A DNA stretch of 64,000 nucleotides from Dialister sp. UBA734 (GCA_002297935.1 DBLC01000097.1:13156-77155), one strand, 5' to 3'; counted from the first letter of the stretch, positions 2,399-51,159 are shown. Notes: generated by a model from the letters alone, not told the origin. Numbers and translations: made by a program.

Positions 2399-4414
<2,016 letters not shown>

Positions 4415-4627: not shown

Positions 4628-5050
4628 ATGAGCAACTTAAACAAAAAAGTCAAAGTACACTATGAAGGCACATTTAACGATGGCACCAAATTTGATTCCT
4701 CCTATGACAGAGGACAGCCATTAGAATTTACCTGCGGTGCGGGTCAGATGATTAAGGGATTTGATAAAGCCGTAGAAGACATGGAAGTGGGCGATGTGAA
4801 GAACGTTCACCTGATGCCAGAAGAAGCCTATGGTATGCCGGACCCAAGAAATATTTTCACCATTCCACAGAAACAGCTGCCTGGCTGCGAAGAACTGGAA
4901 ATTGGTGCTAAAGTGTTCCTCAATGGACCTATGGGTCGCTTCCCTGTAGTGGTCAAAGATAAGACCGAAGATACCATTACCTTTGATGCGAACAGTGAAA
5001 TGGCCGGTAAGGAACTGAATTTCAAAATCGAATTGGTAGAAGTAAAATAA
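4628..5050 (+). CDS. FKBP-type peptidyl-prolyl cis-trans isomerase (short SlyD-like form)
   Basis: 140 aa. VKVHYEGTFNDGTKFDSSYDRGQPLEFTCGAGQMIKGFD is a typical FKBP core. SD aaaggag upstream. Confidence 0.85.
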   Translation: MSNLNKKVKVHYEGTFNDGTKFDSSYDRGQPLEFTCGAGQMIKGFDKAVEDMEVGDVKNVHLMPEEAYGMPDPRNIFTIPQKQLPGCEELEIGAKVFLNGPMGRFPVVVKDKTEDTITFDANSEMAGKELNFKIELVEVK

Positions 5051-11933: not shown

Positions 11934-11954
11934 CATTAAATTATCGGAACTTAT
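11934..11954. repeat. attL core (CATTAAATTATCGGAACTTAT)
   Basis: Identical 21-mer at 52990-53010, with flanking bases differing on both sides. At attL it forms the spacer plus right arm of a perfect 14-bp inverted repeat (11920-11933 / 11941-11954). Confidence 0.8.
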
Positions 11955-13841: not shown

Positions 13842-14072
13842 CTATCCTAAACTCTCGAGTTCCTTCTGAAGCTGGTTGATCTTATCTCTTGCCTTCTGCC
13901 GTTCGGCAAGCAGGGTGTCTGTATCATAAGGATCTTTTTCGCCTTTGAGTCTAGCTTCATAGGTCTTAAAAATCTTATAGTCCCCAATATTGGAGTTTTC
14001 TCCAGAAAGTTCCGTTTTGAGATTAATGATTTCCTGCTGTTTGACCAGCTTCTGTTTTTCTTTTTCGTCCAT
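13842..14072 (-). CDS. Hypothetical coiled-coil protein
   Basis: 76 aa, K/E-rich. Start overlaps the RT 3' end by 50 nt. Confidence 0.45.
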   Translation of the reverse strand: MDEKEKQKLVKQQEIINLKTELSGENSNIGDYKIFKTYEARLKGEKDPYDTDTLLAERQKARDKINQLQKELESLG

Positions 14073-15189
14073 TTTCTATTTGCCTCCTTGCGTATAAATC
14101 CATATTATCGAGCGTGTGAAAGGCACTATATCTTTTCTTATCGCCTCGCCAGGAACGGTATTGCTGCATGTAGTCTTGCTGACTAACTTTCCCATCACCG
14201 ACTAACTGCCCCAATTTTCTAAGTTTCCTACGTTCACGTTTGACCACATCTTTAGGTATTTTCTTGATGATCTTCCCTGTTGGTGTCAGTACGTACCGTG
14301 TCTTTAGCCACGTAAAACCATGAGATAATTTGACGATTTGTGTTTTCTTGGGGTTGATATGAATGCCTAGATTTTTAGCTATTGCCATGATGTCTTTCAA
14401 TAGTTCTTTTAGGAACTGCTTGCTTGGATGAATGACAATTCGATCGTCCATATAAGCATCATAGCAATGGACAGCCTTCACGGTTTTCACATAGTTGTCG
14501 ATCGTGGTCGGGTACAAAATACCTATGATTTGTGAGATAGGTGCTCCGATCCCTAGTGATTTTCTCATCATTCGTTTCTTTGTTAACAGTTCTTTCGGAA
14601 TTTTGGCGTAATCAAGCGAATTAAACACTTTGTCTTCTATCTGAGGATCATTCGTGTAAGAAATATCAACCTCGTAGGTTTTCAAGATTAGTTTTGTGAT
14701 TTCTGTCAATGATTCATCCTTAAAGATTCTCTCGATCTGATTGATTGCCATGTCATGGCGAATGTTATCGAAATACTTGGAGAAATCTATGATGAGGGCA
14801 TAACCTCTCCAGCCGTGCCGTCTATAGTGCCAATGTAGATGCTCGTCAAAGCGCCTTCTCGTAAATGATAGCCCGCGGCCTTTTAGGCCTGCCCCATTAT
14901 CATGTATGATCCTTTTCTTGACTTCAGGAATTACTACGCCATCACAAAGTGCATGTTGAAATGCAGCATCCTTTGGGACCATGGACTTCACCAATCTTTG
15001 ATGCCCATTTTCGTTGATCTGAAATATAGAACCTTGTTTGGGAGCATATTCCCCGGACGCCACTTCTTTCTTTAGTTTGGAAATCTCACTCAATCTATTT
15101 AGTAAGAAGCGTTGTGATTGGTATTTCCAGCCAGATGATTTTGCCAGTTTTTGGCTGGCTTTAATGTATTGTTTTGCTTTGATATTCAT
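14023..15189 (-). CDS. DGR-type reverse transcriptase
   Basis: 388 aa. RT motifs ALIIDFSKYFDNIRH, DGR-diagnostic SLGIGAPISQ ([LIV]GxxxSQ), YMDD, INPKKTQ, GFTWLK. Lies 134 nt downstream of the TR. Confidence 0.9.
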   Translation of the reverse strand: MNIKAKQYIKASQKLAKSSGWKYQSQRFLLNRLSEISKLKKEVASGEYAPKQGSIFQINENGHQRLVKSMVPKDAAFQHALCDGVVIPEVKKRIIHDNGAGLKGRGLSFTRRRFDEHLHWHYRRHGWRGYALIIDFSKYFDNIRHDMAINQIERIFKDESLTEITKLILKTYEVDISYTNDPQIEDKVFNSLDYAKIPKELLTKKRMMRKSLGIGAPISQIIGILYPTTIDNYVKTVKAVHCYDAYMDDRIVIHPSKQFLKELLKDIMAIAKNLGIHINPKKTQIVKLSHGFTWLKTRYVLTPTGKIIKKIPKDVVKRERRKLRKLGQLVGDGKVSQQDYMQQYRSWRGDKKRYSAFHTLDNMDLYARRQIENGRKRKTEAGQTAGNH

Positions 15190-15323
15190 AATAGTACGCC
15201 GCGCTTATAGCCACGATATCCTTAGATAGCAACGTCACGGCCCTTATTTACCTTTCGGATGGACGCATACTCATTCCCTGCTGTAGCACCTGACATATAG
15301 CCTTATTGGTGCCTTCTGAGAAG

Positions 15324-15409
15324 CGGGCGGACGCCGCCCACATTCGACGCGTTGTTCGTGTTGGCATTGCCGTCGTTGTTCGCATTGGCGAAGTTGTTGG
15401 CGTTCGCTA
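15324..15409 (-). repeat. DGR template repeat (TR)
   Basis: 86 nt aligning without gaps to 16022-16107 (offset 698). There are 13 mismatches, all T on the + strand, i.e. A on the coding strand. In frame it reads 11 AAY codons. Confidence 0.9.
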
Positions 15410-15429
15410 GTAGCATGCGCCCAGTGCCC

Positions 15430-15957
15430 TTATTTTAATGCTTGCTTTCTTTTATTGTCTGATTTTCGCCAGCCCTTTAGTAGGGCGATTTCTCTATCTA
15501 TGGCGTCGATGTATCTAAGAAGTTTATCTGCGTCAACAGGTAAGATATCCACCGCAAGTTCGAGCTCTTGTTTTAGGCTTTCGCAGTCTGCTATGGCTAA
15601 ATCTTGCGAGTTCCGACGAAGATCAGCTTCTGCTTTTGTGGTTGCCCAAATCGTGTAAGCCCTGGTGATGTGTTTCATCATATTCGCCAGGTGTAAAAGT
15701 ATCTGTTCTCGCACGTGCTCCATTAGCCATAGTGGATAATTGTCCACTATCTTAGACTCGCCATATTTTTCTAAAAGTTCTTCCAGTGCGTGTGCATCTT
15801 CCTGTTTCCATTTCCTTGTATAAAATTTGGTGTCTCTCACTCTTGGCTTTACGCCAAAGTCTCTGCCCATGAGAAAAATGAGCTGTCGTCTGAGTTTGCA
15901 TGCATTCATGTAAAACTCCAGCTTTGACAACGTTCTGTTTCGTGCTAATACCGACAA
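15430..15957 (-). CDS. avd: Accessory variability determinant (Avd)-like helical-bundle protein
   Basis: 175 aa, basic and helical. TTG start with strong SD aaaggag 8 nt upstream. Sits in the canonical position between the VR-bearing gene and the TR. Confidence 0.6.
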   Translation of the reverse strand: MSVLARNRTLSKLEFYMNACKLRRQLIFLMGRDFGVKPRVRDTKFYTRKWKQEDAHALEELLEKYGESKIVDNYPLWLMEHVREQILLHLANMMKHITRAYTIWATTKAEADLRRNSQDLAIADCESLKQELELAVDILPVDADKLLRYIDAIDREIALLKGWRKSDNKRKQALK

Positions 15958-15976
15958 AATATTCTCCTTTCTCTAT

Positions 15977-15995
15977 GCGCCCCATAAAGGGGCGC
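15977..15995 (-). promoter_or_regulatory. GC-rich hairpin downstream of VR (DGR target-recognition cruciform candidate)
   Basis: GCGCCCC-ataaa-GGGGCGC, 7-bp all-GC-rich stem, 26 nt beyond the VR 3' boundary and 8 nt after the target stop codon. Confidence 0.5.
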
Positions 15996-16003
15996 GGTCA
16001 GGG

Positions 16004-17268
16004 TTAACGGAGCAGGAAATACGGGCGGACGCCGCCCACACCCGACGCGCCGTTCGTGTAGGCACCGCCGTCGTTGCTCGCATAGGCGAAGTGGGAGGCG
16101 GTCGCTACGTCTCGCAGCCAGCACCAATAGGTTCTAGTAAAGTTCTTACCGTATCTGAAGATAGCAAGCTGCTTGTTAAAGTCGCCTTCTTCCTGTCCTG
16201 AGGATGCGAATGGATGGTTACCATACATCATGGCTTGGTTGCAAATATTGACTTTGATATCATGGCGCCATGGGTAACTTCCATCGGTCGCGCCATCTTT
16301 TCCGTTCCAGTCCCAGTACGCACTACCCATCCATCCGGCACCTGCAGCAGATGCTGCATTGGCATTCATATTGTTGGTAAGCAGTTCAGAGTGTTCAAGT
16401 ACATGATCCGTGCCAAAGGCGGCCACGATTCCTGTTGTGTATTTAGGTAATGTTGTTTTAAACATTTCACTCTTCTGGTATCCACCAGCCGTGGTATTTG
16501 TCGCATTCATTCGTGCGGTTCCAAGATTGTTTTCGGGTATTAAAACAACATGGTGCACATCTTGATTCTTATATCCTCTATCGTAGTGGTAGTCTAGGTC
16601 GGCTACCAGCCATTTAACATTGTTGTATGCTGTGCCATTGATGGTAACGGATTTGATAATGTAATCTCCCGGGAAGATATCATCAAAAGTTCCTGCTGCA
16701 ATGGCTTTGCTCATTGCACCACTATTGAAGTATGAGGTAAGGTCTTTGCCTCGATAGATGCTGTTGTGTGCAGCTGCCGTTTTGGGCAACAACTTCCACC
16801 ATTCCTCTTTGGACTTATCCATATCCGTTCTAAGTGCATCCACATATTCTTTTGCACATACGGTTTTTGTTGTAAATACGGCCGTTCCATCATTAACGGT
16901 TTTTCCACCAGTAGTTATACTGGAAACGTCTGGTTCATCTGTACCTGTTGTTCCCGCCGTTGTGCACTCAAAATATAGTACTCCTGAAAGCGCGTAGAAA
17001 TATACTACATCTCCCACATTGTAAGATGTCTTTCTATGTAAAGCGCGCTTGTCGCTTTCAACGGTCATTGTTTTAGACTTAATGTTGCTTACTGATAAAT
17101 CGCCTTTTATAGTCACACTTTCTGCAATGACACTATCAGTCTTGATACTACCAGATGAAATATCTTCCTCTACTGTAGCCTTCTTTACTTGAATGTTTCC
17201 CCATTTTTTAGCAGCTGTTCCGATATATCCTTCTCCATCTGCTCTAGGGACAATTCCTCGTGTTGACA
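16004..17268 (-). CDS. DGR target: tail-fibre / receptor-binding protein with variable C-terminus
   Basis: About 421 aa from ATG 17268 (the ORF-track start 17278 is GTG). N-terminus MSTRGIVPRADGEGYIGTAAKKWGNI is tail-fibre-like. VR covers the last roughly 30 codons. The WCWLRD...GGVRP ending is compatible with a C-type-lectin-like fold. Confidence 0.8.
16022..16107 (-). repeat. DGR variable repeat (VR) at the 3' end of the target gene
   Basis: Counterpart of the TR. Encodes ...VATASHFAYASNDGGAYTNGASGVGGVRP. The shared adenine-free end GTGGGCGGCGTCCGCCCG (IMH-like) is itself a GGGCGG/CCGCCC hairpin. Confidence 0.9.
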
Positions 17269-17296
17269 TTTTTATCACTCACTTTCTTAATACGCT

Positions 17297-18313
17297 TTAA
17301 GCGTCATAAGCTTTTGGCATCAAATCACCATTGCCGTCAATTTGCCAATTTCTCCCTCCAATTACTTCGACGGCTGGCATGAAATCTCCATTATCATCCA
17401 GGTCAAACAAATTAGAGGATAAGTCGACTGTAAGCTGCACCCATTTGCTAGACGATCCCGGTACTTCTCCTGCCTCTGTTGTATCTATGCAACGGTATGT
17501 GTGCCCATCTTTATAGGCTACTACATCCGGGTAATGATAAATTTTGCCTTCTTCCCATGAATCCGCTTTTGAAGCTAAGGCTGTAGCTGATGCTTCTTTA
17601 GCTTGATTTGCATATCCTTCCGTCTGGTCCATTAACTGGTGCGCAGTCTCTAAGTTGCCTTCTATTTTTTCATTGATTGTTTCTGCTAGATCTTTGATTT
17701 CTAAGGCCTCGTCTTTGATCCGACTTATTTCTGACAAATTCTCTCTTGAGGCATTTTCGGCATTCTTGGCCGCATCAGCATATTTTGCCGCCAAGTCAGA
17801 ATAATATTGTGGTTGTTTTACTGTTTCTAACGCTGTGCCATCAGCATTCCAGCCGAAGATTGTGTTTGGTACTGGAGCTGGTAAATTAAAAGAGATGTTA
17901 TCGCCGGCACTTTCAGGGAGCTTTAGTGTTCTTTTCCCAGTATTGAACAAATCTTGGCAAATCATTGTAAGTTTATCTAATGCTTTTTCGATAACTGCAA
18001 ATGGCCATTTCTCTCCTAATGACGATAGTTGATTGATTTCTATATCTCTATAAATAACCAACTTCTCACCGTTTGCCAAAATAGCTGGCCGTTCACTTTC
18101 TGCAGGTTCTTCTCCTATCGGATATCCAGGGTAGAAAACTACCATCTTGTCCAAATCAACAAAATAATCTTTCTCTAAAGTGCTTTCTGTCTGATCAGCG
18201 TTAACCTTGACTACTTTTACATCTTCTTTTTGCAAAGCGGGAAATGGTATAGCAAATTCTGTTGCAACTCCGTTTCCTTTATAAATCGTTCGATTTACTG
18301 ACGTGTTGATCAT
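17297..18313 (-). CDS. Tail fibre / tail spike-like protein
   Basis: 338 aa, SD ggaggaaa. N-terminus NRTIYKGNGVATEFAIPFP is common in phage fibre proteins. C-terminal YKDGHTYRC...SSKWVQL resembles a carbohydrate-binding motif. Confidence 0.6.
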   Translation of the reverse strand: MINTSVNRTIYKGNGVATEFAIPFPALQKEDVKVVKVNADQTESTLEKDYFVDLDKMVVFYPGYPIGEEPAESERPAILANGEKLVIYRDIEINQLSSLGEKWPFAVIEKALDKLTMICQDLFNTGKRTLKLPESAGDNISFNLPAPVPNTIFGWNADGTALETVKQPQYYSDLAAKYADAAKNAENASRENLSEISRIKDEALEIKDLAETINEKIEGNLETAHQLMDQTEGYANQAKEASATALASKADSWEEGKIYHYPDVVAYKDGHTYRCIDTTEAGEVPGSSSKWVQLTVDLSSNLFDLDDNGDFMPAVEVIGGRNWQIDGNGDLMPKAYDA

Positions 18314-18394: not shown

Positions 18395-21300
18395 TCATTT
18401 CTTATCCTCTTTCTTTTTAGACTTCTTGGGTTCGGCCTTGAGTGGTCTATCAAAGATAATGCTTCGAAGTAGATCAGCCAATGTGTATTGGTTCTCGGTG
18501 GTGCAGAATCTGACGGTACTCCAGAAGCCATCTGAGAGGGTATCGGAAAATCCCAGGTAGGATCGGTTGGAGACTTTGTTCACGTTCCGGGCTACTTCGA
18601 TGTAGTCACCCTTCTTAGTGGCGTCCATAATTCTTGGAATGTAGTTCAAAACATCCATAGCGCCAACATCTGGTGTAATTTCTCCCGTCTTTTTACCGGT
18701 CACGGCGTAATTTACCACCCATGGTAGACAATCTCGAATGACAGGGATCCCGCCAATCGGACCGCCGTTGAAAAAGGCATTGACGATTTTGTTTTTGTAT
18801 TTATCATCATCATCCTTATCGCCCCACGCGGCACGCATGCAGCCTTCAAAGACGGCGTTGAGAACCCAGCAGAACAGAATCGATTCTGCTAACGGTCGAA
18901 TGGAACCTGTATCTTTCCACTTATAGAAATCCCTCATAAACCAATTGGCTACCAGGTTGGTGTAGGAATAAAAGGCGGTGATCTGACCTAGCCAGTGCCC
19001 GTTTCTCATTATTTCTGGTCTATCTTTGATTTCCCCAGAGCCAAAGGTCTGTCGGACTGCTTTGTCTGCCAGTCTGACAGATTCCGCATCAATGTCTTCT
19101 ATCTTCATTTCCGGATGTTCCAGCTGCAGTTTTCTCTTGCTTCCTTCGTAAGTGGCAAGCCATTGCGGCATGGATAACATGTAGTCCGTTTTTGTAATCA
19201 ACCAAAAGCCATACCTGTTGATATTGGATGTTCCAAATTTTCCATTTTCCAAAGTAGAATGGAGCTTTGATTCTCCTTTTTCTACAGGAAGCCGCATACC
19301 CTGGGCCATGTCTCTGTCCATGTTACTCTCTCTGTCTCGCATGAAAGAGGACTTTTCTTTGATAAAGCGATATCTTTCGGCCACTCTTCTCGGTGCATAT
19401 GGAATATCTTTGTAAAAATGAGCTATGGCGTATAGTGCATTCATAGGCCCCATCTCATTCATCAGTGGGAAAATATTCAATGCATTCAGCAAGGCTGTAG
19501 ACGTTCTATACGCCATGGTCGCAAAATTAAACTTGCAACGCATACGGTTAAAAAAGCCTACCCAGTCATTGGCTTCAACGATTGGGCTATGCCAGTTATC
19601 TACTACCCATTGTTTTAGGAAATCATAACCGTCTTGTCCCATAACATTAACGATGCTTTCTTCGACGTCTTTTCTGCACAAGAGCTTGTATACGTCTACG
19701 GTAGCTTCTCGCATGGTGGTGTGCTGGATGGCTTCATCTACAAATTTAGGGTATAAATCCAAACTCAAGTTCAAGATTTGTCCGCCGGATCCGGTTCTTG
19801 TTTTGGTGCTTCCCATTCCGATGCCAAAGGTGGTAGCACCTTTCATGCCCTGCTTGGCCATATCGTTGACAGACTGTTCGGAAGTTCGCTGAGACAAGTC
19901 CTTGTCATAACGAATAGTGTAATACTGACCTCGAATTTTCCTGCCGCTTTTCAGTGTAAAGGTGATACCCGGTACCTTCCCCATGGGGACGCCGTATAAA
20001 TCGTTCTGTACTTTAGACCGGCCGGCGTAGTAGCTATTGAGATGGTTCCATACTTTTTCTACAAAGTCCCAGTCTTTATCTGTGAGATAGGTTTCTAGCT
20101 CTTCTTGTAAATCAATGGCCCAGTTCGATTTATTCAAATCGTAAGTTGGATTGACTTCTCTCACGATATCTTTGATTCGGTCTCTGTTGGATTCAGTTCC
20201 CCAGTTCAAAGCAATAACTAGGAGCTCTTCTTTTGCGAATAGTTCATCACTATCCAAAATTCTGTACTTCCTGTCATTTCTGATTTCCAGCCACTCTTTT
20301 CTGGAATAAGTATTGAATATCTTTTGGATATCCTTTTTTGCTTGTTCCTTCATTTCTCGCTGTCTTGCGGTAGCGATATCAATCGGCTTGTACAGGTAGT
20401 TGTAAGCCGCCGGTCCTAATCGTTCTATGTACATTTCAGGGAGTGCTAGCGAGCGGGCATATTTAGCTATGACGTGCAGTTTCTTTTGTTTGTCTGTAAA
20501 CAGATGCTTTCTCTGGAAGGGCGTAAAAAACTGCAAACCAGATACATTATGCAAACCATTTACAATCTCTTTGGCCGCATTATCAAAGGAAGTGCCCAGT
20601 GTGTTTCCTTCGTATTCTCGCCGACCAATGCGGTACACGGCTTTCATGCACTTTACAATGTCTCGGAAGTCGTTCATGGTGAGTTTATTGAAACTTCCTG
20701 GCTTCGAGTCAAAGTTGAAATAGGTGTCCAAGACCCATTCTGGAATAACGTCTGAACCATCGAATAAGAGAGACGCGCCGTCCAGCTGCTTCATATTCAT
20801 TGGATCTACCATGTCCAAAATAGCTTGCTTACTAAATGGCCTTGGATTCCCTGCGCTATCGATAGGCATTGGTGCATCGTTCTTTGTCATGCCGCACATA
20901 TAAGCCAGGTGCTGTATGAAATATCTGGCGTCGTCTTGGAGTAGTACAGGATTCTCTTTCCTTCCGATGCGATTGATCAGACCCAGGATGCCGTAGCGTT
21001 CCATGCCGTTATTATCCGTTTCTTTTGTAGTCAACTTTCCGCCGCCGTGCAATGCTTTTTTGATTTCATCCACATTCAGTTTGGCTTGCCGCGACATAAT
21101 GAGATTTTGGGCTTCTACTTTTTTATAGTAGGCTACGCCATCCCAGTCATTTTCAGCAGCACACTTCATGGCTTTGGCGTCTGCTTCTTTGGCTTTGTTC
21201 TGCCACCACTTCCAAGACGTGGCATGGGAGATGGTTTCCAGTGACATGGTATTGTAAGCGTCTTTTCTTAAAGTACCTTTGTCTACCCACATTCCTTTTC

Positions 21301-24300
21301 TAGATTCTCTCAGTCCATCCACCATGGTTTTGAGCTGTCCTTCCAGGTCGGCCACGGTGGCCTCGGTATCTTTTTGAGTAGCCTGCGTTTTCTCGTGGGC
21401 GGCCCGTTCTTTTTCCAGTTCCGCTTCGATGGCTCTGAGATTGTTTTCCAGAAGTTCGGCAGATTCTTTTCGAGATTTGTTTTCGCCCTTGGCGTCGGAA
21501 GCTTCTTTTCTAGCAGTCTCCAATTTTTCTTTCAAAGTCTTAACCTGCTTTTCCAGCTTGGAGATCTTTTCTTCCGAACGGGCGATGGTATCGGCTTGCT
21601 TGTCCAATTCACTAGTTTCCTTTTCGGAAACAAGTCCCAGTCGCTTTCGGATCTCTCTTGCCACCTTTTCTTTGTCCTTGGCCCGTTTGAGCTTCAACTG
21701 CATAGATGTTACAAGGTTGATGTACTGGGTGACTTTCTTTTCCAGCAGCATGGATTCGATACGGGATTTCTTCTGTAAGCCTTCCGGACTGTTCAGGATG
21801 TCTTCGGCCATTTGCTTGATGACTTCCGGAGTCAGGGCCTCATCTTTGTACTGCTGTACCATATCAGCGATATGCTTATGCCATTGTTCTTCTGAAGTTC
21901 CGCCGGATTCTTTGAGTCTCTGCTTGAATTCTTTTTCGGAGGCAAAGCCGCTTAATTTTAAGAAACCCTCTCTGTCTTTCTGTGTTGGATATGCGTCTGC
22001 ATTGTAGACTTGTTCGATGCTGTAGAGTTCATTCTCGTCGGCCAGGGATGTCATGAATTCGGCTTTTGCTTCTTCTGTGGAAATAGAGTCTTTGAATTGT
22101 TCAATGGCGTCTTCTTTTACCATAGACAAGTAGTAACTCATGGCTTTTTCCTGAGCTTTCTGTTTGACATTTTCGGCCCATTCCTTGAGATTGCCCAATT
22201 CAGACTTGTTCACGTCGATGGCTTTATCAATGGACTCCAGCTTTCTTTGGGCAGCCCAGGCGTTGATTTCGTCTTCGGTGGCTAGCATTTTATCAAAGAT
22301 GTCTTTGATCTCCGGTGTCAGTTTGACGTTGCCCAAATTCTTGGCTGTCTTATAGATATCGGTCAACCACTTTTTGAACCGCCGGAATACACCTTGCATT
22401 TCCTTTGTCGGGGCGCTTCCATCCATGAGGTATTTTTCAAAGCCTCTGGCAAAGCGTTCCTGGATCCAACGCTCTTCCGCCCCTTCTTTCCCGGCTGCGA
22501 TGTCTGCAGCATGCTGGGCAAATTCTTTCTCTAGGGCTGTACCTTTGTACTCTGCTAGGTGGTCTTCGCTATAAGCCGCCCAATTTCTAATGGTGGATAA
22601 ATCGTCCTGCATTCGCTTCATGGAAGCGGTGGCCGCTTTTTCGTCTCCATTGAAATACTGCAGCAGTGTCTGGGTATCGGTCTGACTCATATCTTCCAGC
22701 ATAGATAGGAACATGTGGGCCCCTTCGTGGATGACGGTAGACTGATTGGCTCCATCAAAGATATCAATGACATTTTGATTTCTGTCGTAGGAGCCTTGGA
22801 ACCTTGTTCCGTTCTGGAAATACTGCTTGGCTCTGTCCTGGGCACTGTTGGTTACACGTTCTCTATCTCCGTCGATTTTCGGATCGTAGAGGCGAATCAT
22901 AACGCCTTGGGCTCTCAAATAGTCTTTGATTTCTTTAGGTGCGTTTTTAGGCATAACGGCTGCCGCTACTTCATTGAAACGAACGGCCCTCTGTGGCTTG
23001 GCTTCAAAGTATTTAACAGGAAGCGCTTTGACTTCTTTCACGATTTCCTTGGCCTGCTTTTCGAGTTCAGCGGAGTAGTTGAAATCAAATTTCTTCGCGG
23101 ATACCTTGAATGATTTCCCCTGCATCATGGCCATAAGAACTCGCGCGGCATCGGAATAGGACTCCCACTTATTTTCCCATTTGTAGGCATCAGCCATTTT
23201 ATTTGTGAAATCCATAATCTTGTTTTTGACGGCAGTGTATTGTTCAGAATCGTCCAGTCCCGTTTCTGTGTTTGTTGAAGTGTCCATTTTCTTGTCGGCT
23301 ACTTCGTGAACTTCCTTCAAAGAGTTCATCTTCTTGGCGCTGCTGGCAATGACATTTCCTACACCATATCCGGCAAAACTGGTCTGGGCATTTTTGAGTT
23401 TCCCTAACATGGTATCTACAATGTTTTCCAAAGTGGCCGGCTTCCCATTATCCTGGATAACCGTTTCTCCCAGCATTTCATTGCGAAAGGATCTCTTCCA
23501 TGATTCATATGCTTTCTGATTCACCTCGACCTTTTTACTGACCTGTGTTTCAAAGGCCCGGCTGTCAAAAACCTTTTCGTCTCTTTTCAGGAAATCCCAT
23601 AGCAAAGAATGTAATTCCTCTCCATTAGCTATTCTTGCTTTTCTTCGTTCCCTCAATCTTTTACCCCATGCCGAAGTTCCTTCTGTCGACTCCTTTGTTG
23701 TCTCCTGTATCAATAAATCATTTACCTCTTTGATATCCGGACTTTCTTCTAGCATGGCATAAGGACCTTCATATAAAAGATCTTTTAATCCATCTTTCCC
23801 GTATTTCTTTTCTAGTTTCTGACATGCTTTCAATATTGTTGGATGCTCGGCAAATGTCCCACCTAGCTTCTTCTTTACCCACTTTGGCTTCGGTGCTTTG
23901 TTTATGGACTTGAGAAAATAATACTTAAACCCGATAGAATCTATAGAACTTTCTAGCATACGCTGTACGTCTCCGTTTTTATTCTTGACGTTAAAAAGCA
24001 TATTGCTATCATATAAATTCCCATAATCAGCATTCTCTCTTGGGAGCTCTCGCTGCAATGGCTCGATTACATTTTTCATGAAATCTTGCAACTTTTTTAG
24101 ATTTGCCACTCGAACTGTTTTTGGAAATACTCCTGTCCATGCATCTCTAGAGAATACCGGTGTCTGTGTTGGATCTACAGTGTCCTTGTTCATAATCAAG
24201 GTGACGTCACCAAAGCCTGTATAAGGAGTTTGTTTCTTGGTGATAGCGATAGAAGGGACAGGGAACCCGCCTAATTTGATTGCGGCCTCCAGGTTGCTTA

Positions 24301-27300
24301 GTCCTATGTTGTGCATGGCTACAAGATCTTTCTCTGGTGCTGCAGCCTGATAGTATTTATTGCTTTTGTCAAACTCATTGATTGCTTCCTGTAAAACCTC
24401 GCCATTTTCCCCGATTTTATCGGTGATTTCTTTGACATTTTCTAGCCATTCCTGTATACTATGAGTAAAGATAGGCTTGTCTAAGCTCTGCCCGGTTTTG
24501 GGAACCGGATACAGGTGTTTAGATGAGCCTTCTTTTATTTCTCTCATGCTTGTAATTTCGCCATCGTAAAAATATAAGTTCCCGTTTTTGTCTTTACGAA
24601 CTACAATTCTCGCTATACAGTCTTCATTGCCAATTGTCACTCTCTGCGCATAATAGCGATATGACAGCGTTGTCTGATTTAGCTTTTTAATTCTTCCTAC
24701 GTCCCGGGCTTCTTCGTAAAGGAAAGTTGCTTTTGAAACAACAGCATTCAAATGTGTAAGCATATATAGGTTTCGAAGATCTGCTGAATGGCGTCTAATT
24801 TCTTTTGCCGCAGTTATTGGCATTACTATATTTTCACCATATTTATTAACTACTTTCCCTGGATTTTTGTATCCGTTCGCCATAACCGTAGGTGAGAATA
24901 ATGCGTGAAAAATAGTTTTGATATTTTTTCGTACTGATTCTGTAGTTGGCTGAATTTCTGACTTAGCGCTGCCGTTAACCCAATTTATGACGCTATGAAA
25001 ACTTTCTTGAGTTATACTTTCGGGTTTAGTATTAAACAAGTCGTTGTATCTCTTTACTGTATCCCAGCCTCTAAACCACCTTTTGAAAGAATCGCTATGA
25101 GAAATTAACCACTGACGTTCAGTTAGTTTAGTATGGCTTCCATCAGGTGCCTTCATCCATCGGTCTGTATTTTGAAGTTTTTCTTTAATTTTGGATAATT
25201 CATCTTCAATGTTCTGCTGTGAAAAAGGCAATTCGGCTCTGCCCAAATTAACAACCGCCGGTCCAAATTCGGAGAAATAGTAATCTGGCATGCTCCATTT
25301 TCCAGTAACATATGGATTTTTACCATCAGCGTTTGCTTTGATATCCTGCCAATCCTGATACAACGTTTTGGCTTCATCTGACATTTTATCCAGTTCGTTT
25401 CTCCTATAGGCCATTTTGTCTAATGGATGACGGCTCAAGTAAGTATCAAAAGTATTTTTAGCTTTGATACTTCTATTCATCTGCTGGATAAATTCCTTTT
25501 TGGCTTTGGTATATTCCTCAGCCCGGCCTTCAATCATAAAAGCTTCTGTTTCACCGCCTAACATTCTATAGGCGGTATAGTCGTTTACACTGGACGCCCG
25601 CTTTAATAATTTGATTTCCGCTAAATACCCTTTGATAGCTCTGACTTTTTCAAAGGGTATTTTCTTTTCCATTGCACTAAGCTCTGCATTAATCTTAAAA
25701 AACTTTTCAAAATCACGACAGTTCTCGGCTTCATGGTATTTGTCTAAAAACTCCTGTGCTTCTTTGGTGTCAATTTCCGATTTAAGGGCGAGCTCTAATG
25801 TATGCAGTGTACTTTCCATATCAGCCTTGGCCGTTTCCGGGCTGCCGCCTTTGGAAAAGCCTTGCTCGAATTTATTTTGGATTACATGCTGCAATTCGTG
25901 GATAATGGTTTTCTTCGCTTCTTCCGGATCGGATTTTACGTAGTCCTTGTCTAGGATGATGTGGTCTCCCTGGGTGGCTCCATTGGCCCCTGCGAGTTCT
26001 CCATCTTCATAGGTCAGGAAATCGGCTATGCGAATTTTGGTATCTCTTAGGTCGGGATATGCTTCATAGAGGTCTTCATTGGTATAGATTTCATCGATGT
26101 AACGTTCTTCTTCAGACAGTCTATCCAGGTGAATGCCTTCTAAATCGTCAGGGATTTCAAAGCGCCAAATACCTTCCGGTCCCCTAAGCCATCCCGTCTT
26201 ATTCCATATTTCTTCCGGTACGGCTCCATCCTGTTCCATTTGTTCTGCTTCGCGCAATTTTTCTAACGGCGCCGTTCTGGCATTCTCACCCGCCATCTGC
26301 CCCAGTGCTTCCGGTGCAAGGCCGGTGATTTCTCCGGCTTTGATGGTTGCCAGTTTCAACGGCACGCCGTAGTTCTTATGGAAATTCTCTGCCAGCTTTG
26401 CCAGAATCAAAGCGGAGTCTCTAGCAGCCTGTGTAACTTCTTTGTTTCCTGCTTTGGTGATTTGTTCCAATAGCGGCTTGTATGCCTGTTCGTAGGTATC
26501 AGGATCGAGTAAGGTCTGAGCAACAAGATCTTTCTTATCCAGTGTCTTGATGACTTCTCCGACACGTTCCAAAGATTCGACTTTTGCCTTGGCGGCTTCC
26601 AGTTCCTGGGTTCCCATGTGAGAGTCTTCGCTATTATCATGAAAAACTTCTTTGATGATTTTCTGATGCGCTACATCATACAGTTCTCGCTGGGTAGGTG
26701 CTCTGTCATGGTCACTGTAGAAGTCCTGATACCAGTCCGGATTCTTCGATTCTCGGATATGTACACGGTCGGCACCTTCACCCACGTCGATAAAATCTAC
26801 GCCCTTTTCGCCAGATGTATTGGCGTCCTGTGTCTTTCTTCGTTCCATGTAGTCCTGGAGTTCTTTTACACCGGAAAGATCGCCCCAGGCTTTTTTTGCT
26901 TCTTCTAGCAGACTTTTGTAGTTTTCCTGTAAATGGTCCAATCCGCCGGAAAGGAGTTCTTGGGCTGTGGCCCGGTCTTCTCTCCCTTTTTCAGTGTCTT
27001 CGGAAAAATGATCGTTCAGAATTTTTTCGCTGGCGGCCGCTTCTCTCTTCTCTTTGGTAGAAGTGACAATATCAATCATGTCCTTATAGCGCTGGCGTTC
27101 TTCTTTGATAGCGTGTAGAGTACGTTCTCCCTTGTCCATGGTGGAATAATCAGACAAAACTTCTGGCGTTTCTTCTGAAGCGAGCTGCATATATTTCCCG
27201 GATTCTACGGCCAGTGGCTTGCCTGTTTTAATGGATTCGTCGAGTTCTTTAGCGGAAACAATTCCCTTTTCCACCATTTCGTTCAGTGCTTCATGAGTGG

Positions 27301-29062
27301 ATTCGTTTTCGGCTGCAGCTTGTGCATCGATGTAAACCGTCCCCATATCAGCCTGATCCATCTGTCTTTGAATGGTTTTTCTATAGGTTTCTGGTGCTTT
27401 ATGGTAAAGAGAAGAGTCTTCACGAAGTTCCATAACTTTCTGCAACATGGCATTTTCATTTTGCCTTTTAAATTCTGTGACGGTCTCTTTCATTTCAGAT
27501 AGTCCGGATATTTTCTTCATTGCCTTATAAGCACCAATGCCGCCTAAAGCGGAACCGCCAATAGACATACCAATGACGGACGGTACAGCTTCAACCATGG
27601 CGTCCAGGGCATTGTTGAACATTTCTTTTGCAGAAATTCCGCCTTCGCCATAGATGTTGGTATCTAAATCTGACGTCATAGATTGCAAACCTTCTTCTAC
27701 GGTTTCCGGAATAGCTACTTTGGCAAACTGCTTGCCACCATGAATCAAAGCTTGTTTTCTGATAGCTCCTCTTCCTGCGCCAATCAATTTTTTCATGGCA
27801 TCGGTGTCTTTGATAACAGCAGAAGCAGCTTCACTTCCCCATACTTTGGCAATGCCTTTGAATGCCAGTTCCCAGGCACCCGTTTCAATAGCAGCATTCA
27901 TCATACCTACTCTCTTAGCGTGTCCAATAGCCTGCTCGCGAGTATAGACATGATTTCCGTTTTTACCTTTCTTGGTTCTCCATTCCCAGTAAGCCTGACC
28001 TGCTTCTGCTCTGTACGTGCCTACAAAAACAGAGGCAGTGCCTAACGTGAGTAAGCCGGCAATAGCAGCACCACTGGCAACAGTAGCAGCGGCTGCGGTT
28101 CCTGTCAGTCCTAATGCGCTTGCAGTTGCAGTGCTTCCTAATGTGGCAATTTGTGGGATGTTAGTTTTTGTGGCCTGGAGTGCGGGCTGTGCTAACGGGG
28201 CGATAGGAGCCAAAATTTTTTCTGCCCCTCTCATCATCATGTTTTTCTGCATGGACAACTGAGAAATGGCTTCTCCTACGATCCTAGCCACGTAGGTGTC
28301 TCCCATTTCAGACTTAAATTCTTTCTGCATAGTCATAAGTCCAGGAAGTGCCTTCTCTACATCTTCATCGGAAATTTCGCCGATAGAGGCTTTGTACATG
28401 AGCTCGCTCTGTGCATCCATAGCCTGTCCAGCGTTATAAGCTTTAGTGACAAGGTCAGAGATTTTCCCAAAGATATAACCAGGAAGGCTGTTTATATCTT
28501 TCATAGTAGATTTATAGGTACCCCAAAGAGAAGGGTCGGCATCCATAGTATAAGCAGCCGTTCCTTCCGAAATGGCTCTGCGTGTTTTCAGGATGTTGTT
28601 ATAGTCTCTTAATGCCATAGTAGTGGCTACGGTATCTTCGGTATCTAATTCTGGATACATCTGTGCCACTGTTTGTGGTGTGAATGGCTTCCCCTGCAGA
28701 AAGGCATTGTTTTGCTGCTGTTCATAGGTTAATAAGGCATTCTTGTATAGATCGTCGTTTTCCGCCAATGTCTGCGGGACTAGTCCTAAAGCATTGCCTA
28801 CCTTTTCTGCACTAGCTAGTCTTTCATCTGGGGTCTGTGTATTGGTCTGCACTCGCCAGAACTTTTTCAGCTTATCTATTGTCCCCATAGATTCATCGTC
28901 TAGGAATGTCCAGTCAATCCCGCTTTGAGCGGCTTGCTGTTTTCTCTGACGTTCTTCGTATGGTTCATCCGTCCCCATGGTAGGGATTACTGGGTATTGC
29001 TGCTTAGAGACTTTGGCTTGTCCGGTAAAGACGGCCATGAAGTCGTCATCGTTCATTGGCAT
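18395..29062 (-). CDS. Giant virion-module protein (about 3,555 aa), putative ejected polyvalent protein
   Basis: ORF open to 29146. Best start is ATG 29062 (GGAGGAG 7 nt upstream; TAATG overlap with the upstream stop). Gly/Ala-rich hydrophobic N-terminal region. HELQH at 25886-25900 and HEGAH at 22715-22729. Long K/E coiled coil. Hydrophobic C-terminal third. Confidence 0.85.
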   Translation of the reverse strand: MPMNDDDFMAVFTGQAKVSKQQYPVIPTMGTDEPYEERQRKQQAAQSGIDWTFLDDESMGTIDKLKKFWRVQTNTQTPDERLASAEKVGNALGLVPQTLAENDDLYKNALLTYEQQQNNAFLQGKPFTPQTVAQMYPELDTEDTVATTMALRDYNNILKTRRAISEGTAAYTMDADPSLWGTYKSTMKDINSLPGYIFGKISDLVTKAYNAGQAMDAQSELMYKASIGEISDEDVEKALPGLMTMQKEFKSEMGDTYVARIVGEAISQLSMQKNMMMRGAEKILAPIAPLAQPALQATKTNIPQIATLGSTATASALGLTGTAAAATVASGAAIAGLLTLGTASVFVGTYRAEAGQAYWEWRTKKGKNGNHVYTREQAIGHAKRVGMMNAAIETGAWELAFKGIAKVWGSEAASAVIKDTDAMKKLIGAGRGAIRKQALIHGGKQFAKVAIPETVEEGLQSMTSDLDTNIYGEGGISAKEMFNNALDAMVEAVPSVIGMSIGGSALGGIGAYKAMKKISGLSEMKETVTEFKRQNENAMLQKVMELREDSSLYHKAPETYRKTIQRQMDQADMGTVYIDAQAAAENESTHEALNEMVEKGIVSAKELDESIKTGKPLAVESGKYMQLASEETPEVLSDYSTMDKGERTLHAIKEERQRYKDMIDIVTSTKEKREAAASEKILNDHFSEDTEKGREDRATAQELLSGGLDHLQENYKSLLEEAKKAWGDLSGVKELQDYMERRKTQDANTSGEKGVDFIDVGEGADRVHIRESKNPDWYQDFYSDHDRAPTQRELYDVAHQKIIKEVFHDNSEDSHMGTQELEAAKAKVESLERVGEVIKTLDKKDLVAQTLLDPDTYEQAYKPLLEQITKAGNKEVTQAARDSALILAKLAENFHKNYGVPLKLATIKAGEITGLAPEALGQMAGENARTAPLEKLREAEQMEQDGAVPEEIWNKTGWLRGPEGIWRFEIPDDLEGIHLDRLSEEERYIDEIYTNEDLYEAYPDLRDTKIRIADFLTYEDGELAGANGATQGDHIILDKDYVKSDPEEAKKTIIHELQHVIQNKFEQGFSKGGSPETAKADMESTLHTLELALKSEIDTKEAQEFLDKYHEAENCRDFEKFFKINAELSAMEKKIPFEKVRAIKGYLAEIKLLKRASSVNDYTAYRMLGGETEAFMIEGRAEEYTKAKKEFIQQMNRSIKAKNTFDTYLSRHPLDKMAYRRNELDKMSDEAKTLYQDWQDIKANADGKNPYVTGKWSMPDYYFSEFGPAVVNLGRAELPFSQQNIEDELSKIKEKLQNTDRWMKAPDGSHTKLTERQWLISHSDSFKRWFRGWDTVKRYNDLFNTKPESITQESFHSVINWVNGSAKSEIQPTTESVRKNIKTIFHALFSPTVMANGYKNPGKVVNKYGENIVMPITAAKEIRRHSADLRNLYMLTHLNAVVSKATFLYEEARDVGRIKKLNQTTLSYRYYAQRVTIGNEDCIARIVVRKDKNGNLYFYDGEITSMREIKEGSSKHLYPVPKTGQSLDKPIFTHSIQEWLENVKEITDKIGENGEVLQEAINEFDKSNKYYQAAAPEKDLVAMHNIGLSNLEAAIKLGGFPVPSIAITKKQTPYTGFGDVTLIMNKDTVDPTQTPVFSRDAWTGVFPKTVRVANLKKLQDFMKNVIEPLQRELPRENADYGNLYDSNMLFNVKNKNGDVQRMLESSIDSIGFKYYFLKSINKAPKPKWVKKKLGGTFAEHPTILKACQKLEKKYGKDGLKDLLYEGPYAMLEESPDIKEVNDLLIQETTKESTEGTSAWGKRLRERRKARIANGEELHSLLWDFLKRDEKVFDSRAFETQVSKKVEVNQKAYESWKRSFRNEMLGETVIQDNGKPATLENIVDTMLGKLKNAQTSFAGYGVGNVIASSAKKMNSLKEVHEVADKKMDTSTNTETGLDDSEQYTAVKNKIMDFTNKMADAYKWENKWESYSDAARVLMAMMQGKSFKVSAKKFDFNYSAELEKQAKEIVKEVKALPVKYFEAKPQRAVRFNEVAAAVMPKNAPKEIKDYLRAQGVMIRLYDPKIDGDRERVTNSAQDRAKQYFQNGTRFQGSYDRNQNVIDIFDGANQSTVIHEGAHMFLSMLEDMSQTDTQTLLQYFNGDEKAATASMKRMQDDLSTIRNWAAYSEDHLAEYKGTALEKEFAQHAADIAAGKEGAEERWIQERFARGFEKYLMDGSAPTKEMQGVFRRFKKWLTDIYKTAKNLGNVKLTPEIKDIFDKMLATEDEINAWAAQRKLESIDKAIDVNKSELGNLKEWAENVKQKAQEKAMSYYLSMVKEDAIEQFKDSISTEEAKAEFMTSLADENELYSIEQVYNADAYPTQKDREGFLKLSGFASEKEFKQRLKESGGTSEEQWHKHIADMVQQYKDEALTPEVIKQMAEDILNSPEGLQKKSRIESMLLEKKVTQYINLVTSMQLKLKRAKDKEKVAREIRKRLGLVSEKETSELDKQADTIARSEEKISKLEKQVKTLKEKLETARKEASDAKGENKSRKESAELLENNLRAIEAELEKERAAHEKTQATQKDTEATVADLEGQLKTMVDGLRESRKGMWVDKGTLRKDAYNTMSLETISHATSWKWWQNKAKEADAKAMKCAAENDWDGVAYYKKVEAQNLIMSRQAKLNVDEIKKALHGGGKLTTKETDNNGMERYGILGLINRIGRKENPVLLQDDARYFIQHLAYMCGMTKNDAPMPIDSAGNPRPFSKQAILDMVDPMNMKQLDGASLLFDGSDVIPEWVLDTYFNFDSKPGSFNKLTMNDFRDIVKCMKAVYRIGRREYEGNTLGTSFDNAAKEIVNGLHNVSGLQFFTPFQRKHLFTDKQKKLHVIAKYARSLALPEMYIERLGPAAYNYLYKPIDIATARQREMKEQAKKDIQKIFNTYSRKEWLEIRNDRKYRILDSDELFAKEELLVIALNWGTESNRDRIKDIVREVNPTYDLNKSNWAIDLQEELETYLTDKDWDFVEKVWNHLNSYYAGRSKVQNDLYGVPMGKVPGITFTLKSGRKIRGQYYTIRYDKDLSQRTSEQSVNDMAKQGMKGATTFGIGMGSTKTRTGSGGQILNLSLDLYPKFVDEAIQHTTMREATVDVYKLLCRKDVEESIVNVMGQDGYDFLKQWVVDNWHSPIVEANDWVGFFNRMRCKFNFATMAYRTSTALLNALNIFPLMNEMGPMNALYAIAHFYKDIPYAPRRVAERYRFIKEKSSFMRDRESNMDRDMAQGMRLPVEKGESKLHSTLENGKFGTSNINRYGFWLITKTDYMLSMPQWLATYEGSKRKLQLEHPEMKIEDIDAESVRLADKAVRQTFGSGEIKDRPEIMRNGHWLGQITAFYSYTNLVANWFMRDFYKWKDTGSIRPLAESILFCWVLNAVFEGCMRAAWGDKDDDDKYKNKIVNAFFNGGPIGGIPVIRDCLPWVVNYAVTGKKTGEITPDVGAMDVLNYIPRIMDATKKGDYIEVARNVNKVSNRSYLGFSDTLSDGFWSTVRFCTTENQYTLADLLRSIIFDRPLKAEPKKSKKKEDKK

Positions 29063-49681: not shown

Positions 49682-49780
49682 GTATCTCACCTTCTCTCTT
49701 CTATAGGACTCTGATAATTTAATGGTCTTCACCTTACTTGAATATAATTCTGCATTCATGGCATAAAAAATAGCGGTATA

Positions 49781-50490: not shown

Positions 50491-50513
50491 AGGTTCGGTT
50501 TAGGTGATTACAT

Positions 50514-51130: not shown

Positions 51131-51159
51131 GATGTACCTCCATAAAGAAAGAAAAAACT

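Follow-up and report, generated by a model that had tools for sequence, protein, structure and literature searches.

[quoted passage not shown] In DGRs the variable repeat (VR) usually lies at the 3' end of a target gene and is displayed on a C-type-lectin or Ig-like fold, and the accessory protein is either Avd, from a four-helix-bundle family, or HRDC. A hairpin placed after the VR is an element required in the BPP-1 system (PMC3240598). In other DGRs the target is a DUF6273 protein, which is C-lectin-like, and a further type, with a Hoc-like adhesin as target, exists in gut phages (PMC10743442). DGRs with DUF6273 targets are carried by the Faecalibacterium prophages Roos, Pioen and Lelie, by phages nd4 and nd12 and by the Roseburia phage Shimadzu. 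Acutalibacter phage Fontainebleau (ON453893), an induced prophage of A. muris from the OMM12 consortium, also has a TR/VR pair; the paper in which it was named makes no mention of a retroelement.

The locus analysed here lies in a stretch of DNA of 64,000 nt (the window), and is very probably a functional DGR of the BPP-1 type, carried by a temperate BPP-1-like podovirus prophage at 11934-53010. Its features are as follows.

11934-53010, no strand assigned: prophage with the DGR, 41.1 kb, with a 21-bp direct repeat (att) at its ends
13842-14072, minus strand: coiled-coil ORF, 76 aa, overlapping the 3' end of the RT gene; PHROG 17180 (unknown function)
14023-15189, minus strand: DGR reverse transcriptase (RT), 388 aa, with YMDD and IGAPISQ; Pfam RVT_1 5.5e-15, PHROG 1423 5e-50
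15190-15323, minus strand: TR-RT spacer, 134 nt, structured part of the DGR RNA, with predicted helices and covariation
15324-15409, minus strand: template repeat (TR), 86 nt; contains 25 adenines and, read in the frame of the VR, 11 AAY codons; begins 20 nt past the avd stop
15430-15957, minus strand: accessory gene of avd-like type, 175 aa, starting with TTG; match to PHROG 3206 ('Avd protein of DGR') at 2e-5
15977-15995, minus strand: GC hairpin GCGCCCC-TTTAT-GGGGCGC, 7-bp stem, placed 26 nt past the VR, immediately ahead of the avd ribosome-binding site
16022-16037, minus strand: GC-rich, invariant, IMH-like 3' end of the VR, GGGCGGCGTCCGCCCG, directly after which the VR and TR flanks diverge
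16022-16107, minus strand: VR, 86 nt, encoding the C-terminal tip of the target, with 15 nt between its end and the stop codon
16004-17269, minus strand: DGR target gene, 421 aa, closing the tail module, with the VR as C-terminal tip
17297-18313, minus strand: tail fibre gene, 338 aa, lying immediately upstream of the target, with an N-terminus like tail-fibre/tail-spike adaptor domains
51763-52872: integrase, within the prophage

An earlier, sequence-only reading had proposed a complete DGR at 14023-17278 in a temperate podovirus-like phage, with the canonical minus-strand order of target, avd-like gene, TR, a 134-nt spacer reaching to the RT start codon, and RT. The cassette and its order are as described, and the DGR is complete; the exception is the start of the target, which had been put at a GTG at 17278. 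The ATG at 17269 (giving 421 aa) is used by gene calls on identical metagenome contigs, and the consensus of the homologues begins MS, like the 421-aa form, so that this is most likely the start. The phage has a T7/BPP-1-like structural module in addition to the integrase and att repeat, and its gene content and order support assignment as a temperate T7-like/BPP-1-like podovirus. Residues 1-138 of the 338-aa fibre protein match PHROG tail and tail-fibre families, and its N-terminus matches the bbp9 tail fibre of BPP-1 by BLASTP (6e-8). On the host side, the nearest named homologue of the AdoHcyase protein is from Megasphaera sp. (71%), and a Negativicutes host is plausible. There is no tRNA within the window.

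The repeat pair, its flanking structures and the reverse transcriptase

In a computed alignment of the minus strand the TR and VR match without a gap over 86 nt, with 13 mismatches, all 13 of which fall on TR adenines (hypergeometric P = 6e-9, given 25 A in the TR). No other base of the TR is mismatched, exactly as the earlier reading had it. The homology ends sharply at both borders, and a chance repeat was rejected on the alignment statistics. The VR lies at the 3' end of the protein-coding target and the TR is a separate copy between avd and RT; these are the single VR and the single TR, no further one being present within the window.

The changes from TR to VR are confined to codon positions 1 or 2, and no variant of the AAY codon design can contain a stop codon. 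Of the 11 asparagine (AAY) codons of the TR, nine encode other residues in the VR (T,S,H,Y,S,G,Y,G,G), as in the earlier reading. The same reading gave about 11 hypervariable residues; the number of AAY codons is right, and with the addition of GAC and ACG the variable codons come to about 13, with up to about 1.4e14 variants.

Both repeats end with GGGCGGCGTCCGCCCG, which occurs exactly twice in the window, i.e. at the ends of the VR and TR, against an expectation of 0.01. The flanks beyond it differ, being TATTTCCTG after the VR and CTTCTCAGA after the TR, and each is kept across related loci. A GC-rich shared 3' end with diverging flanks is the form of the IMH/IMH* of a DGR, and a corresponding role is putative here. 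The hairpin past the VR is present in 11/11 related loci with 10 different stem sequences, compared with 20/1127 background windows; its stem is thus kept by compensatory changes, and it is a candidate target-recognition hairpin or cruciform.

The 134-nt spacer is predicted to form four helices, pairing 15316-15325 with 15272-15280, 15300-15302 with 15292-15294, 15236-15243 with 15196-15203, and 15225-15233 with 15210-15220. In an alignment of nine loci 96.6% of cells are paired, as against 35-43% in slid controls, and 18 pairs show compensatory change, compared with 1-3 in the slid controls; none of 500 shuffles reaches the observed value. A conserved spacer RNA structure of this kind fits an RNA-templated mechanism.

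The RT contains the YMDD and IGAPISQ sequences noted previously, the latter conforming to the [LIV]GxxxSQ motif 4. It could in principle belong instead to a retron, a group II intron or an Abi/DRT defence system, with the diversity of the VR generated by recombination between alleles, or by mutation with diversifying selection. A single-sequence search of the PDB barely separates BPP-1 Brt (30.5 bits) from Drt2 (29.1 bits). By contrast, the profile of the RT family has Brt (8ub7_A) as its best PDB relative, matched over nearly the full length with 128.7 bits, about 60 bits above the group II intron RT (67 bits) and the retron-type RTs (59 bits). The NCBIfam scores of the RT for group II, retron, Drt and Abi families are 16-54 bits against cut-offs of 200-450, all lying far below the cut-off (group II 53.5/300, Drt2 39.7/390, Drt3a 30.5/200, retron St85 28.9/235 and AbiA 16.4/250). 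Rfam gave no family match on the cassette, and thus no intron or retron RNA. A retron, group II intron or Abi identity, the grouping that would have spoken against a DGR, was rejected on the NCBIfam scores and the profile margin for Brt, and the motifs and profile scores together point to an RT of the DGR type.

Variation of the VR between phage copies

The sequence-only reading had suggested that the cassette was recently active. We compared metagenome contigs that encode an identical RT; these come from different samples, so that the differences are between assemblies. The TR is 100% invariant in 10/10 such contigs, among which there are six different VRs that differ at TR-A positions only. 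Across the six alleles 23/25 of the TR adenines are varied, compared with 0/61 of the non-A positions. Identity is 100% for the RT, the avd-like gene, the TR, the spacer and the hairpin in contigs that all have different VRs. The extent of the contrast is seen in contig L007, with 13 VR differences and none in the other ~6.1 kb compared, and in contig L002, with 14 VR differences and none from the fibre gene through the lysis genes. Since there are 13-14 changes in the VR and zero substitutions in ~6 kb, diversification is much faster than background mutation, and it is therefore very recent. At the protein level, the 14 members of the 90% cluster of the target have 14 different VR peptides, and seven of them are identical outside the VR. 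The VR is thus different in every independent copy, and the VRs of otherwise identical phage copies differ at TR adenines only, in agreement with the suggestion of recent activity. Diversification is unidirectional, from TR to VR, and ongoing, as observed between samples.

The giant gene near the cassette has a mosaic structure when copies are compared (257-278 differences over the final 2.8 kb), which indicates that recombination does occur in this phage, and this might be taken to favour an origin of the VR alleles by recombination or selection. However, neither process can confine changes to the A positions of a second, invariant, non-coding copy. Together with the RT scores given above, this means that the explanation by recombination, selection or another role of the RT is effectively refuted.

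A functional DGR would act in the following manner. The region from avd through the TR and spacer to the RT would be transcribed, and the RT and Avd-like protein would reverse-transcribe the TR with the insertion of random bases opposite template adenines; the adenine-specific outcome is observed, and the mechanism would be that of BPP-1. Priming of the cDNA would, by the same analogy, probably occur from within the structured spacer, which pairs with the 3' flank of the TR. The mutagenised cDNA would then take the place of the VR in the 3'-terminal part of the target. The direction of transfer may be set by the shared GC-rich 3' end and the downstream hairpin, both of which are present, and the TR is left unchanged, as is observed. 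The phage would likely benefit by retargeting its receptor binding, using the 13 variable codons for the C-terminal tip of its final tail-module protein.

We also considered that the element might be a fossil, i.e. that the VR was diversified in the past while the DGR is now inactive in this lysogen, for example because regulation is defective or a host factor is lacking. The window contains a single VR state, and no promoter stands out, since scanning for promoters and terminators gave counts at the chance level. In addition, the related loci L019 and L022 have non-adenine differences between TR and VR, suggesting that members of the family can decay. Against this, the parts of the cassette are intact and unchanged in the very contigs whose VRs all differ, the VR differences have accumulated between copies that are otherwise without substitution over ~6 kb, and the excised form of the phage exists, its attP junction being found in contig L006. 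We therefore regard a fossil as highly improbable, and favour an element that is still functional.

The target and the accessory proteins

The target has >1100 homologues with a common conserved C-terminal domain (residues about 160-421), in which the unconserved columns coincide with the AAY positions. There is no match to Pfam or to PDB sequences, and a PDB profile search was likewise empty. Pfam DUF6273 scores 13.3 bits, below its cut-off of 23.5. An AF2 model made with a 60-sequence alignment has a mean pLDDT of 59, and <50 across the VR; with a model of this quality Foldseek found nothing below E 0.3 in the PDB. No similarity to any solved C-type-lectin structure was detected, and comparison with Mtd by hhalign gave a probability of 0.15, i.e. 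no detectable similarity. The target nevertheless has the signature W-W/C-L-R-[DS]...G-V-[RV]-P in common with DUF6273 targets, and in both the VR is at the C-terminal end of the domain (PMC11792537, PMC10743442). We treat this resemblance only as a lead towards a C-type-lectin fold.

A role of the target in the tail fibre may be inferred from the position of its gene. The target might instead be a protein of head decoration, of mucus adhesion, or one linked to lysis or defence. It carries no direct functional annotation, residues 75-135 have a weak match (1e-4) to a PHROG 'head decoration' family, and the Hoc-like adhesin targets of gut phages (PMC10743442) provide a precedent. However, the tail module ends with this gene, which directly follows the gp17-like fibre, exactly the place of mtd in BPP-1, and in related myoviruses its homologue comes after the genes for baseplate J, I and Gp10_C. 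Moreover, the Foldseek neighbours in BFVD are uncharacterised gut-phage proteins except for one, annotated 'receptor binding protein'. A target other than a receptor-binding tail protein is thus unlikely.

The 175-aa gene, which the sequence-only reading had called avd-like, is a divergent Avd. It is divergent because there is no Pfam match and hhalign detected no similarity to BPP-1 Avd (bAvd, 128 aa); there is no PDB sequence match either. The identification comes from three sources. PHROG 3206 is matched by 36/48 of its homologues, the N-terminus of which is conserved from the TTG start onward. The HMM of the family matches the annotated Avd of Roseburia phage Shimadzu (7.7e-16). Lastly, the AF2 model (pLDDT 77) is a helical bundle, for which Foldseek ranks 2rld and 2gsc highest (probability 1.0, although E is 0.08-0.2), which we take to be helical bundles of the Avd superfamily.

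Homologues of the 76-aa ORF (53-69% identity) immediately follow the RT in the related loci L019-L023, whose phage backbones differ; the ORF travels with this cassette family. It has no match in GenBank phages, and no similarity to bbp3 or bbp4 of BPP-1. One could propose that the cassette is a mobile module that has moved across podovirus, myovirus and siphovirus backbones and across bacterial phyla, with the 76-aa ORF as a possible new DGR accessory factor; we consider this rather doubtful. Such a module would consist of the C-terminal domain of the target, the 175-aa Avd variant, TR, spacer RNA, RT and the 76-aa ORF. The alternative, which is equally doubtful, would be vertical inheritance in place in the BPP-1-like podovirus lineage, in which the DGR would have been at the same position since before the split between the phages of Proteobacteria and those of Firmicutes/Negativicutes.

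Comparison with BPP-1 and other phage retroelements

BPP-1 and the present prophage have an identical cassette order and genome position, the common order being lysis, RT, TR, avd, target, fibre, giant protein ... small terminase, and both have an integrase and an att site at the ends. Homologues were found by BLASTP for the portal (3e-73), major capsid (1e-46), tail tubular B (2e-45), giant protein (1e-26) and tail tubular A (3e-21), and the N-terminus of the fibre is also homologous. These homologues are 25-35% identical; with protein identities of only 22-35% overall, the prophage is a distant relative of BPP-1, and judged by nucleotide similarity at the genus level it is not a Rauchvirus. 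The RT is homologous as well, in keeping with the BPP-1 paradigm invoked by the sequence-only reading.

The two DGRs share adenine-specific differences between TR and VR, a GC-rich 3' end common to the repeats and a hairpin after the VR. They differ in a number of respects. The repeats are 86 nt here and annotated as 134 nt in BPP-1. The RT is 388 aa compared with 328, with an insertion between profile positions of about 172 and 212. The hairpin loop is of 5 nt and T-rich, while that published for BPP-1-type DGRs is a 4-nt GRNA loop (PMC3240598). Finally, the present phage lives in an anaerobe of the gut or rumen instead of in Bordetella. At the nucleotide level the cassette matches nothing in GenBank phages except for one 56-nt stretch.

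Fontainebleau is a relative by its cassette. The C-terminal domain of its target (HMM 1.5e-39) and its Avd-like protein (1.3e-24) belong to the same families as those described here, and its RT is 36% identical. Its TR and VR span 87 nt, and each of the 18 mismatches between them sits on a TR adenine; past the VR there is a GC hairpin with a stem of 8 bp and a loop of 5 nt. By contrast, its backbone is of the siphovirus type, with a tape measure protein, unlike the present podovirus, and its target is shorter (311 aa) with a different N-terminal part. The phages with DUF6273 targets have the same order of target, Avd, TR and RT, adjoining tail and lysis modules, and RTs 26-34% identical to that of the prophage. 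However, they are not BPP-1-type podoviruses, and the HMM of the present target family does not match the targets of Roos or nd12.

The element is clearly one more case of a well-known system rather than the first of a new type, and it leaves the understanding of DGRs unchanged. As an instance of DGR activity in nature it is a clean one: otherwise identical phage genomes from different samples differ only at the template-adenine positions of one 86-nt patch. The conserved hairpin and spacer RNA could be used for better annotation of DGRs, in a target family of >1100 members without Pfam annotation. The BPP-1 arrangement exists outside the Proteobacteria, in gut or rumen anaerobes, and this cassette family, with its cultured relative in Fontainebleau, could become a second model for tropism switching in podoviruses.

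The cassette and its repeats

The minus strand of the window carries, in order, a fibre gene, the target, the avd-like gene, template repeat (TR, 15324-15409), spacer and reverse transcriptase (RT), with the variable repeat (VR, 16022-16107) at the 3′ end of the target gene. The features are:

17297-18313, minus strand: fibre gene (338 aa), first in this order
16004-17269, minus strand: target ORF (421 aa), with an alternative GTG start at 17278
15977-15995, minus strand: hairpin with a 7-bp all-GC stem and 5-nt loop, 26 nt past the VR
15430-15957, minus strand: avd-like ORF (175 aa) with a TTG start, followed by a non-coding stretch
14023-15189, minus strand: RT (388 aa) with the motifs YMDD and IGAPISQ
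13842-14072, minus strand: coiled-coil ORF (76 aa), overlapping the 3′ end of the RT gene by 50 nt

Computed ungapped comparison of the TR and VR gives 86 nt of homology that stops sharply at both ends. There are 13 mismatches and the TR base is adenine at all 13; the TR has 25 adenines, giving a hypergeometric P of 6e-9. In the frame of the target the TR contains 11 AAY codons, nine of which are changed in the VR (to T, S, H, Y, S, G, Y, G and G), and changes fall exclusively at codon positions 1 or 2. No stop codon can be reached from any variable TR codon, and the coding capacity (15 residues for each of the 11 AAY codons, and four each for GAC and ACG) is 1.4e14 possible peptides. The spacer between TR and RT is 134 nt in length. 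All that the sequence-only reading stated about the sequence, including the alignment, codon reading, spacer length and RT motifs, is correct. Apart from the TR and VR, neither the repeat nor its GC-rich end recurs within the window.

The TR and VR have the common 3′ end GGGCGGCGTCCGCCCG. Beyond this the flank of the VR is TATTTCCTGCTCC, coding PYFLL, while that of the TR is CTTCTCAGA, and each is kept in relatives. This 3′ boundary matches the IMH/IMH* arrangement of Bordetella phage BPP-1 (PMC8632793). A perfect GC-rich hairpin is present at the equivalent place in 11 related loci, with 10 distinct stem sequences (stems of 6-10 bp, loops of 5-6 nt, starting 23-37 nt past the VR); only 20 of 1127 background windows contain a comparable hairpin. 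Homing in BPP-1 requires a hairpin or cruciform past the VR, where the structure of the stem matters and its sequence does not, and the published phage hairpins have GC stems of 7-10 bp with 4-nt GRNA loops, 4-34 bp from the VR (PMC3240598). By contrast, the loops here are T-rich and 5 nt in length (TTTAT or CTTGT).

The TR-RT spacer is strongly conserved in nine loci, one of them from Succinatimonas, and RNAalifold predicts 31 pairs. Standard pairs are formed in 96.6% of the pair cells, compared with 35-43% when the 3′ partners are slid, and 18 pairs exhibit compensatory change, where the slid controls have 1-3; the observed values were never reached in 500 shuffles. One helix pairs the 3′ flank of the TR (15316-15325) with 15272-15280, the covariation coming mostly from one sequence, and in a distal stem-loop (15210-15233) eight of nine pairs covary. 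The BPP-1 mechanism, in which priming is from the spacer, needs a structured spacer that engages the 3′ end of the TR. No Rfam family matched the cassette.

Variation between natural copies

An exact-protein look-up with the RT returned ten metagenome contigs (L001-L010), two of which (L001 and L003) match the window exactly. Across all ten, not one difference occurs in the TR, spacer, RT or avd-like gene. The VR is present in eight contigs as six distinct sequences, with 23 of the 25 TR-adenine positions varied and none of the 61 others. Contig L007 has 13 differences within the 86-nt VR, whereas the remaining ~6.1 kb that could be aligned has none; in L002 the VR differs at 14 positions, and the stretch that begins with the fibre gene and includes the lysis genes at none. 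At 90% identity the target clusters with proteins that make up a group of 14, no two of which have the same VR peptide, and seven of them match the window target fully across residues 1-387. The evidence for activity is a comparison between samples, and it bears out the sequence-only reading, which had proposed a comparison of VRs among related prophages.

Proteins and family of the cassette

The RT matches Pfam RVT_1 (5.5e-15) and PHROG 1423 (5e-50). Searching the PDB with the single sequence barely separated the BPP-1 RT Brt (30.5 bits) from Drt2 (29.1 bits). This was not discriminating, and therefore a profile was built from 15 aligned RTs (alignment A4) taken from related loci and annotated phages with diversity-generating retroelements (DGRs). 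The profile matched Brt (8ub7_A, identity verified) with 128.7 bits over residues 11-321 of 328, compared with 67 bits for a group II intron RT and 59 bits for retron-type RTs. NCBIfam group II, retron, Drt and Abi models scored far under their cut-offs on the window RT.

Homologues of the avd-like protein are mostly 175 aa in length, with an N-terminus conserved from the TTG start onward. PHROG 3206 (‘Avd protein of DGR’) is matched by 36 of 48 of these, and the family HMM matches the annotated Avd of Roseburia phage Shimadzu at 7.7e-16. The AF2 model (pLDDT 77) has four long helices and one short inserted helix. Its top Foldseek matches are 2rld and 2gsc (probability 1.0, target TM-score 0.75-0.81, E only 0.08-0.2), which we take to be of the 23S-rRNA-IVS protein family; Avd is a member of that family. 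No similarity between the avd-like protein and BPP-1 Avd was found by hhalign. The product of the gene is a divergent Avd.

The target has more than 1100 homologues, with a conserved C-terminal domain (residues ~160-421). Near the C-terminus of the family the only unconserved columns are the AAY positions, flanked by the invariant sequences W-L-R-D-V and G-V-R-P. The target gave no match to Pfam, NCBIfam or PDB sequences, its AF2 model is poor across the VR and structure searches were uninformative. Residues 367-420 align below threshold (13.3 bits, cut-off 23.5) with the C-terminal end of Pfam DUF6273, as do 10 of 60 target homologues. The pattern W-W/C-L-R-[DS]...G-V-[RV]-P-x-F is common to the tails of the window target and those of Acutalibacter phage Fontainebleau and the Faecalibacterium prophage Roos. 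Taken together, these results leave a C-type-lectin fold no more than plausible. Judged on sequence, all the testable defining features of a DGR are present, the fold of the target apart. We infer by analogy that the mechanism would be that of BPP-1.

We note that a motif Y-x-x-G/P-D-V-V-x-Y...Y-x-C occurs in the target (16960-17030, residues ~80-103) and in the C-terminal part of the 338-aa fibre (17400-17500). This short motif recalls small carbohydrate-binding modules of the chitin-binding type, a resemblance supported only by weak matches, from Foldseek to chitinase B and to chains associated with the T4 capsid (E 0.4-10), and from PHROG to ‘head decoration’.

Genomes carrying the C-terminal domain family of the target (L011-L018) represent three or more bacterial phyla of the gut or rumen, and are labelled as Acutalibacteraceae, Agathobacter, Megasphaera elsdenii, Succinatimonas, Sodaliphilus and other Gammaproteobacteria. 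Among isolates, M. elsdenii has the closest prophage (target 63% identical over the full length, Avd-like protein 61%), and the nearest named homologue of the window AdoHcyase is from Megasphaera sp. (71% identity). For the host, Negativicutes is no more than a fair guess. The cassette family is found in P2-like myovirus baseplate contexts (L019, L022 and L024) and in another podovirus (L020). The siphovirus-type phage Fontainebleau (L028, ON453893) has an 87-nt TR and VR (4011-4097 and 4726-4812) with 18 mismatches, at adenine only, and a GC hairpin past the VR; its DGR is of the same family. The paper naming this cultured, induced prophage makes no mention of a retroelement or RT.

In two of the myovirus loci the TR and VR differ at non-adenine TR positions (L019, 5134-5176 and 5828-5870; L022, 5077-5146 and 5771-5840), in some cases with A in the VR and G, C or T in the TR. 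Some members of the family thus seem to be decaying or to have point mutations in the TR.

The prophage and its relationship to BPP-1

The following features lie outside the cassette:

11934-11954 and 52990-53010: 21-bp direct repeat CATTAAATTATCGGAACTTAT, bounding a 41.1-kb prophage
18395-29146, minus strand: giant virion protein (3583 aa), at the position of BPP-1 bbp10
51763-52872: integrase, with LexA, an Xer-type recombinase and CvfB beyond

The structural genes identified by PHROG are the small and large terminase, portal, protease/scaffold, major capsid and tail tubular A and B, then internal virion proteins, a 743-aa glucosaminidase protein, the giant protein, fibre and target; the order of this module is T7-like. 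Holin and amidase genes lie past the RT. In metagenome contig L006 (4024-4044) both prophage ends are joined via the 21-bp repeat with 100% identity. This junction is that of attP in the excised or circular phage, which is therefore probably inducible.

Three independent contigs (L002, L007 and L009) link the lysis end (11934) to 49710, reading forward. Compared with the attP form, these contigs therefore have a 3.3-kb block (49710-53010, with the repressor, SLATT, TIR and integrase genes) in inverted orientation. Part of the att core, TGATAATTTAATG, recurs inverted at 49710-49724. Inversion by the integrase is one possible explanation, and a variant arrangement of the genome is another. The SLATT/DUF4231 membrane-effector gene (50514-50948, plus strand) and ThsB-like TIR gene (51160-51591, plus strand), placed between repressor and integrase in the lysogeny module, resemble a Thoeris-like pair of defence morons.

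Gene calls on identical contigs place the polyvalent-protein domains LPD23, LPD3 and PBECR5 in the giant protein. The last 2.8 kb of its gene has 257-278 differences between phage copies that are otherwise identical downstream, marking a recombination boundary near 18395.

Homologues of the 76-aa ORF (53-69% identity) follow the RT in L019-L023 across different phage backbones. The ORF matches PHROG 17180 (unknown function), and orf25 of Shimadzu has a similar motif; a search of GenBank phages gave no match. The ORF might encode a DGR accessory or a factor for fibre assembly, or might be the gene that opens the lysis module.

The gene order of BPP-1 (att site, lysis, brt, TR, avd, mtd, fibre, giant protein, transglycosylase, internal virion protein, two tail proteins, capsid, protease, portal and terminases) is the same in the window, with the integrase at the far end in both. 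The arm from lysis through DGR, tail and head to packaging is collinear between window 12230-42347 (minus strand) and 140-26318 of BPP-1 (L026, NC_005357), and the genomes are of similar size (41.1 and 42.5 kb). Eight window proteins have significant BLASTP matches in BPP-1 at 22-35% identity, including the portal (31%, 3e-73) and major capsid (30%, 1e-46). The ‘BPP-1 paradigm’ of the sequence-only reading is therefore more than analogy; the phage is a distant relative of BPP-1, with its DGR at the matching place.

Compared with BPP-1, the repeats are shorter and the RT is longer, the Avd-like protein is both longer and divergent, the target is of an unannotated family, and the hairpin loop is T-rich and of 5 nt. 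Temperate gut phages commonly carry DGRs, and these have been described in detail, so this cassette adds a member to a known system. Of some interest are how strong the natural-variation evidence is, how the cassette has spread as a module, the 76-aa ORF conserved past the RT, and a whole-genome gene order held in common with BPP-1 in a non-proteobacterial setting.
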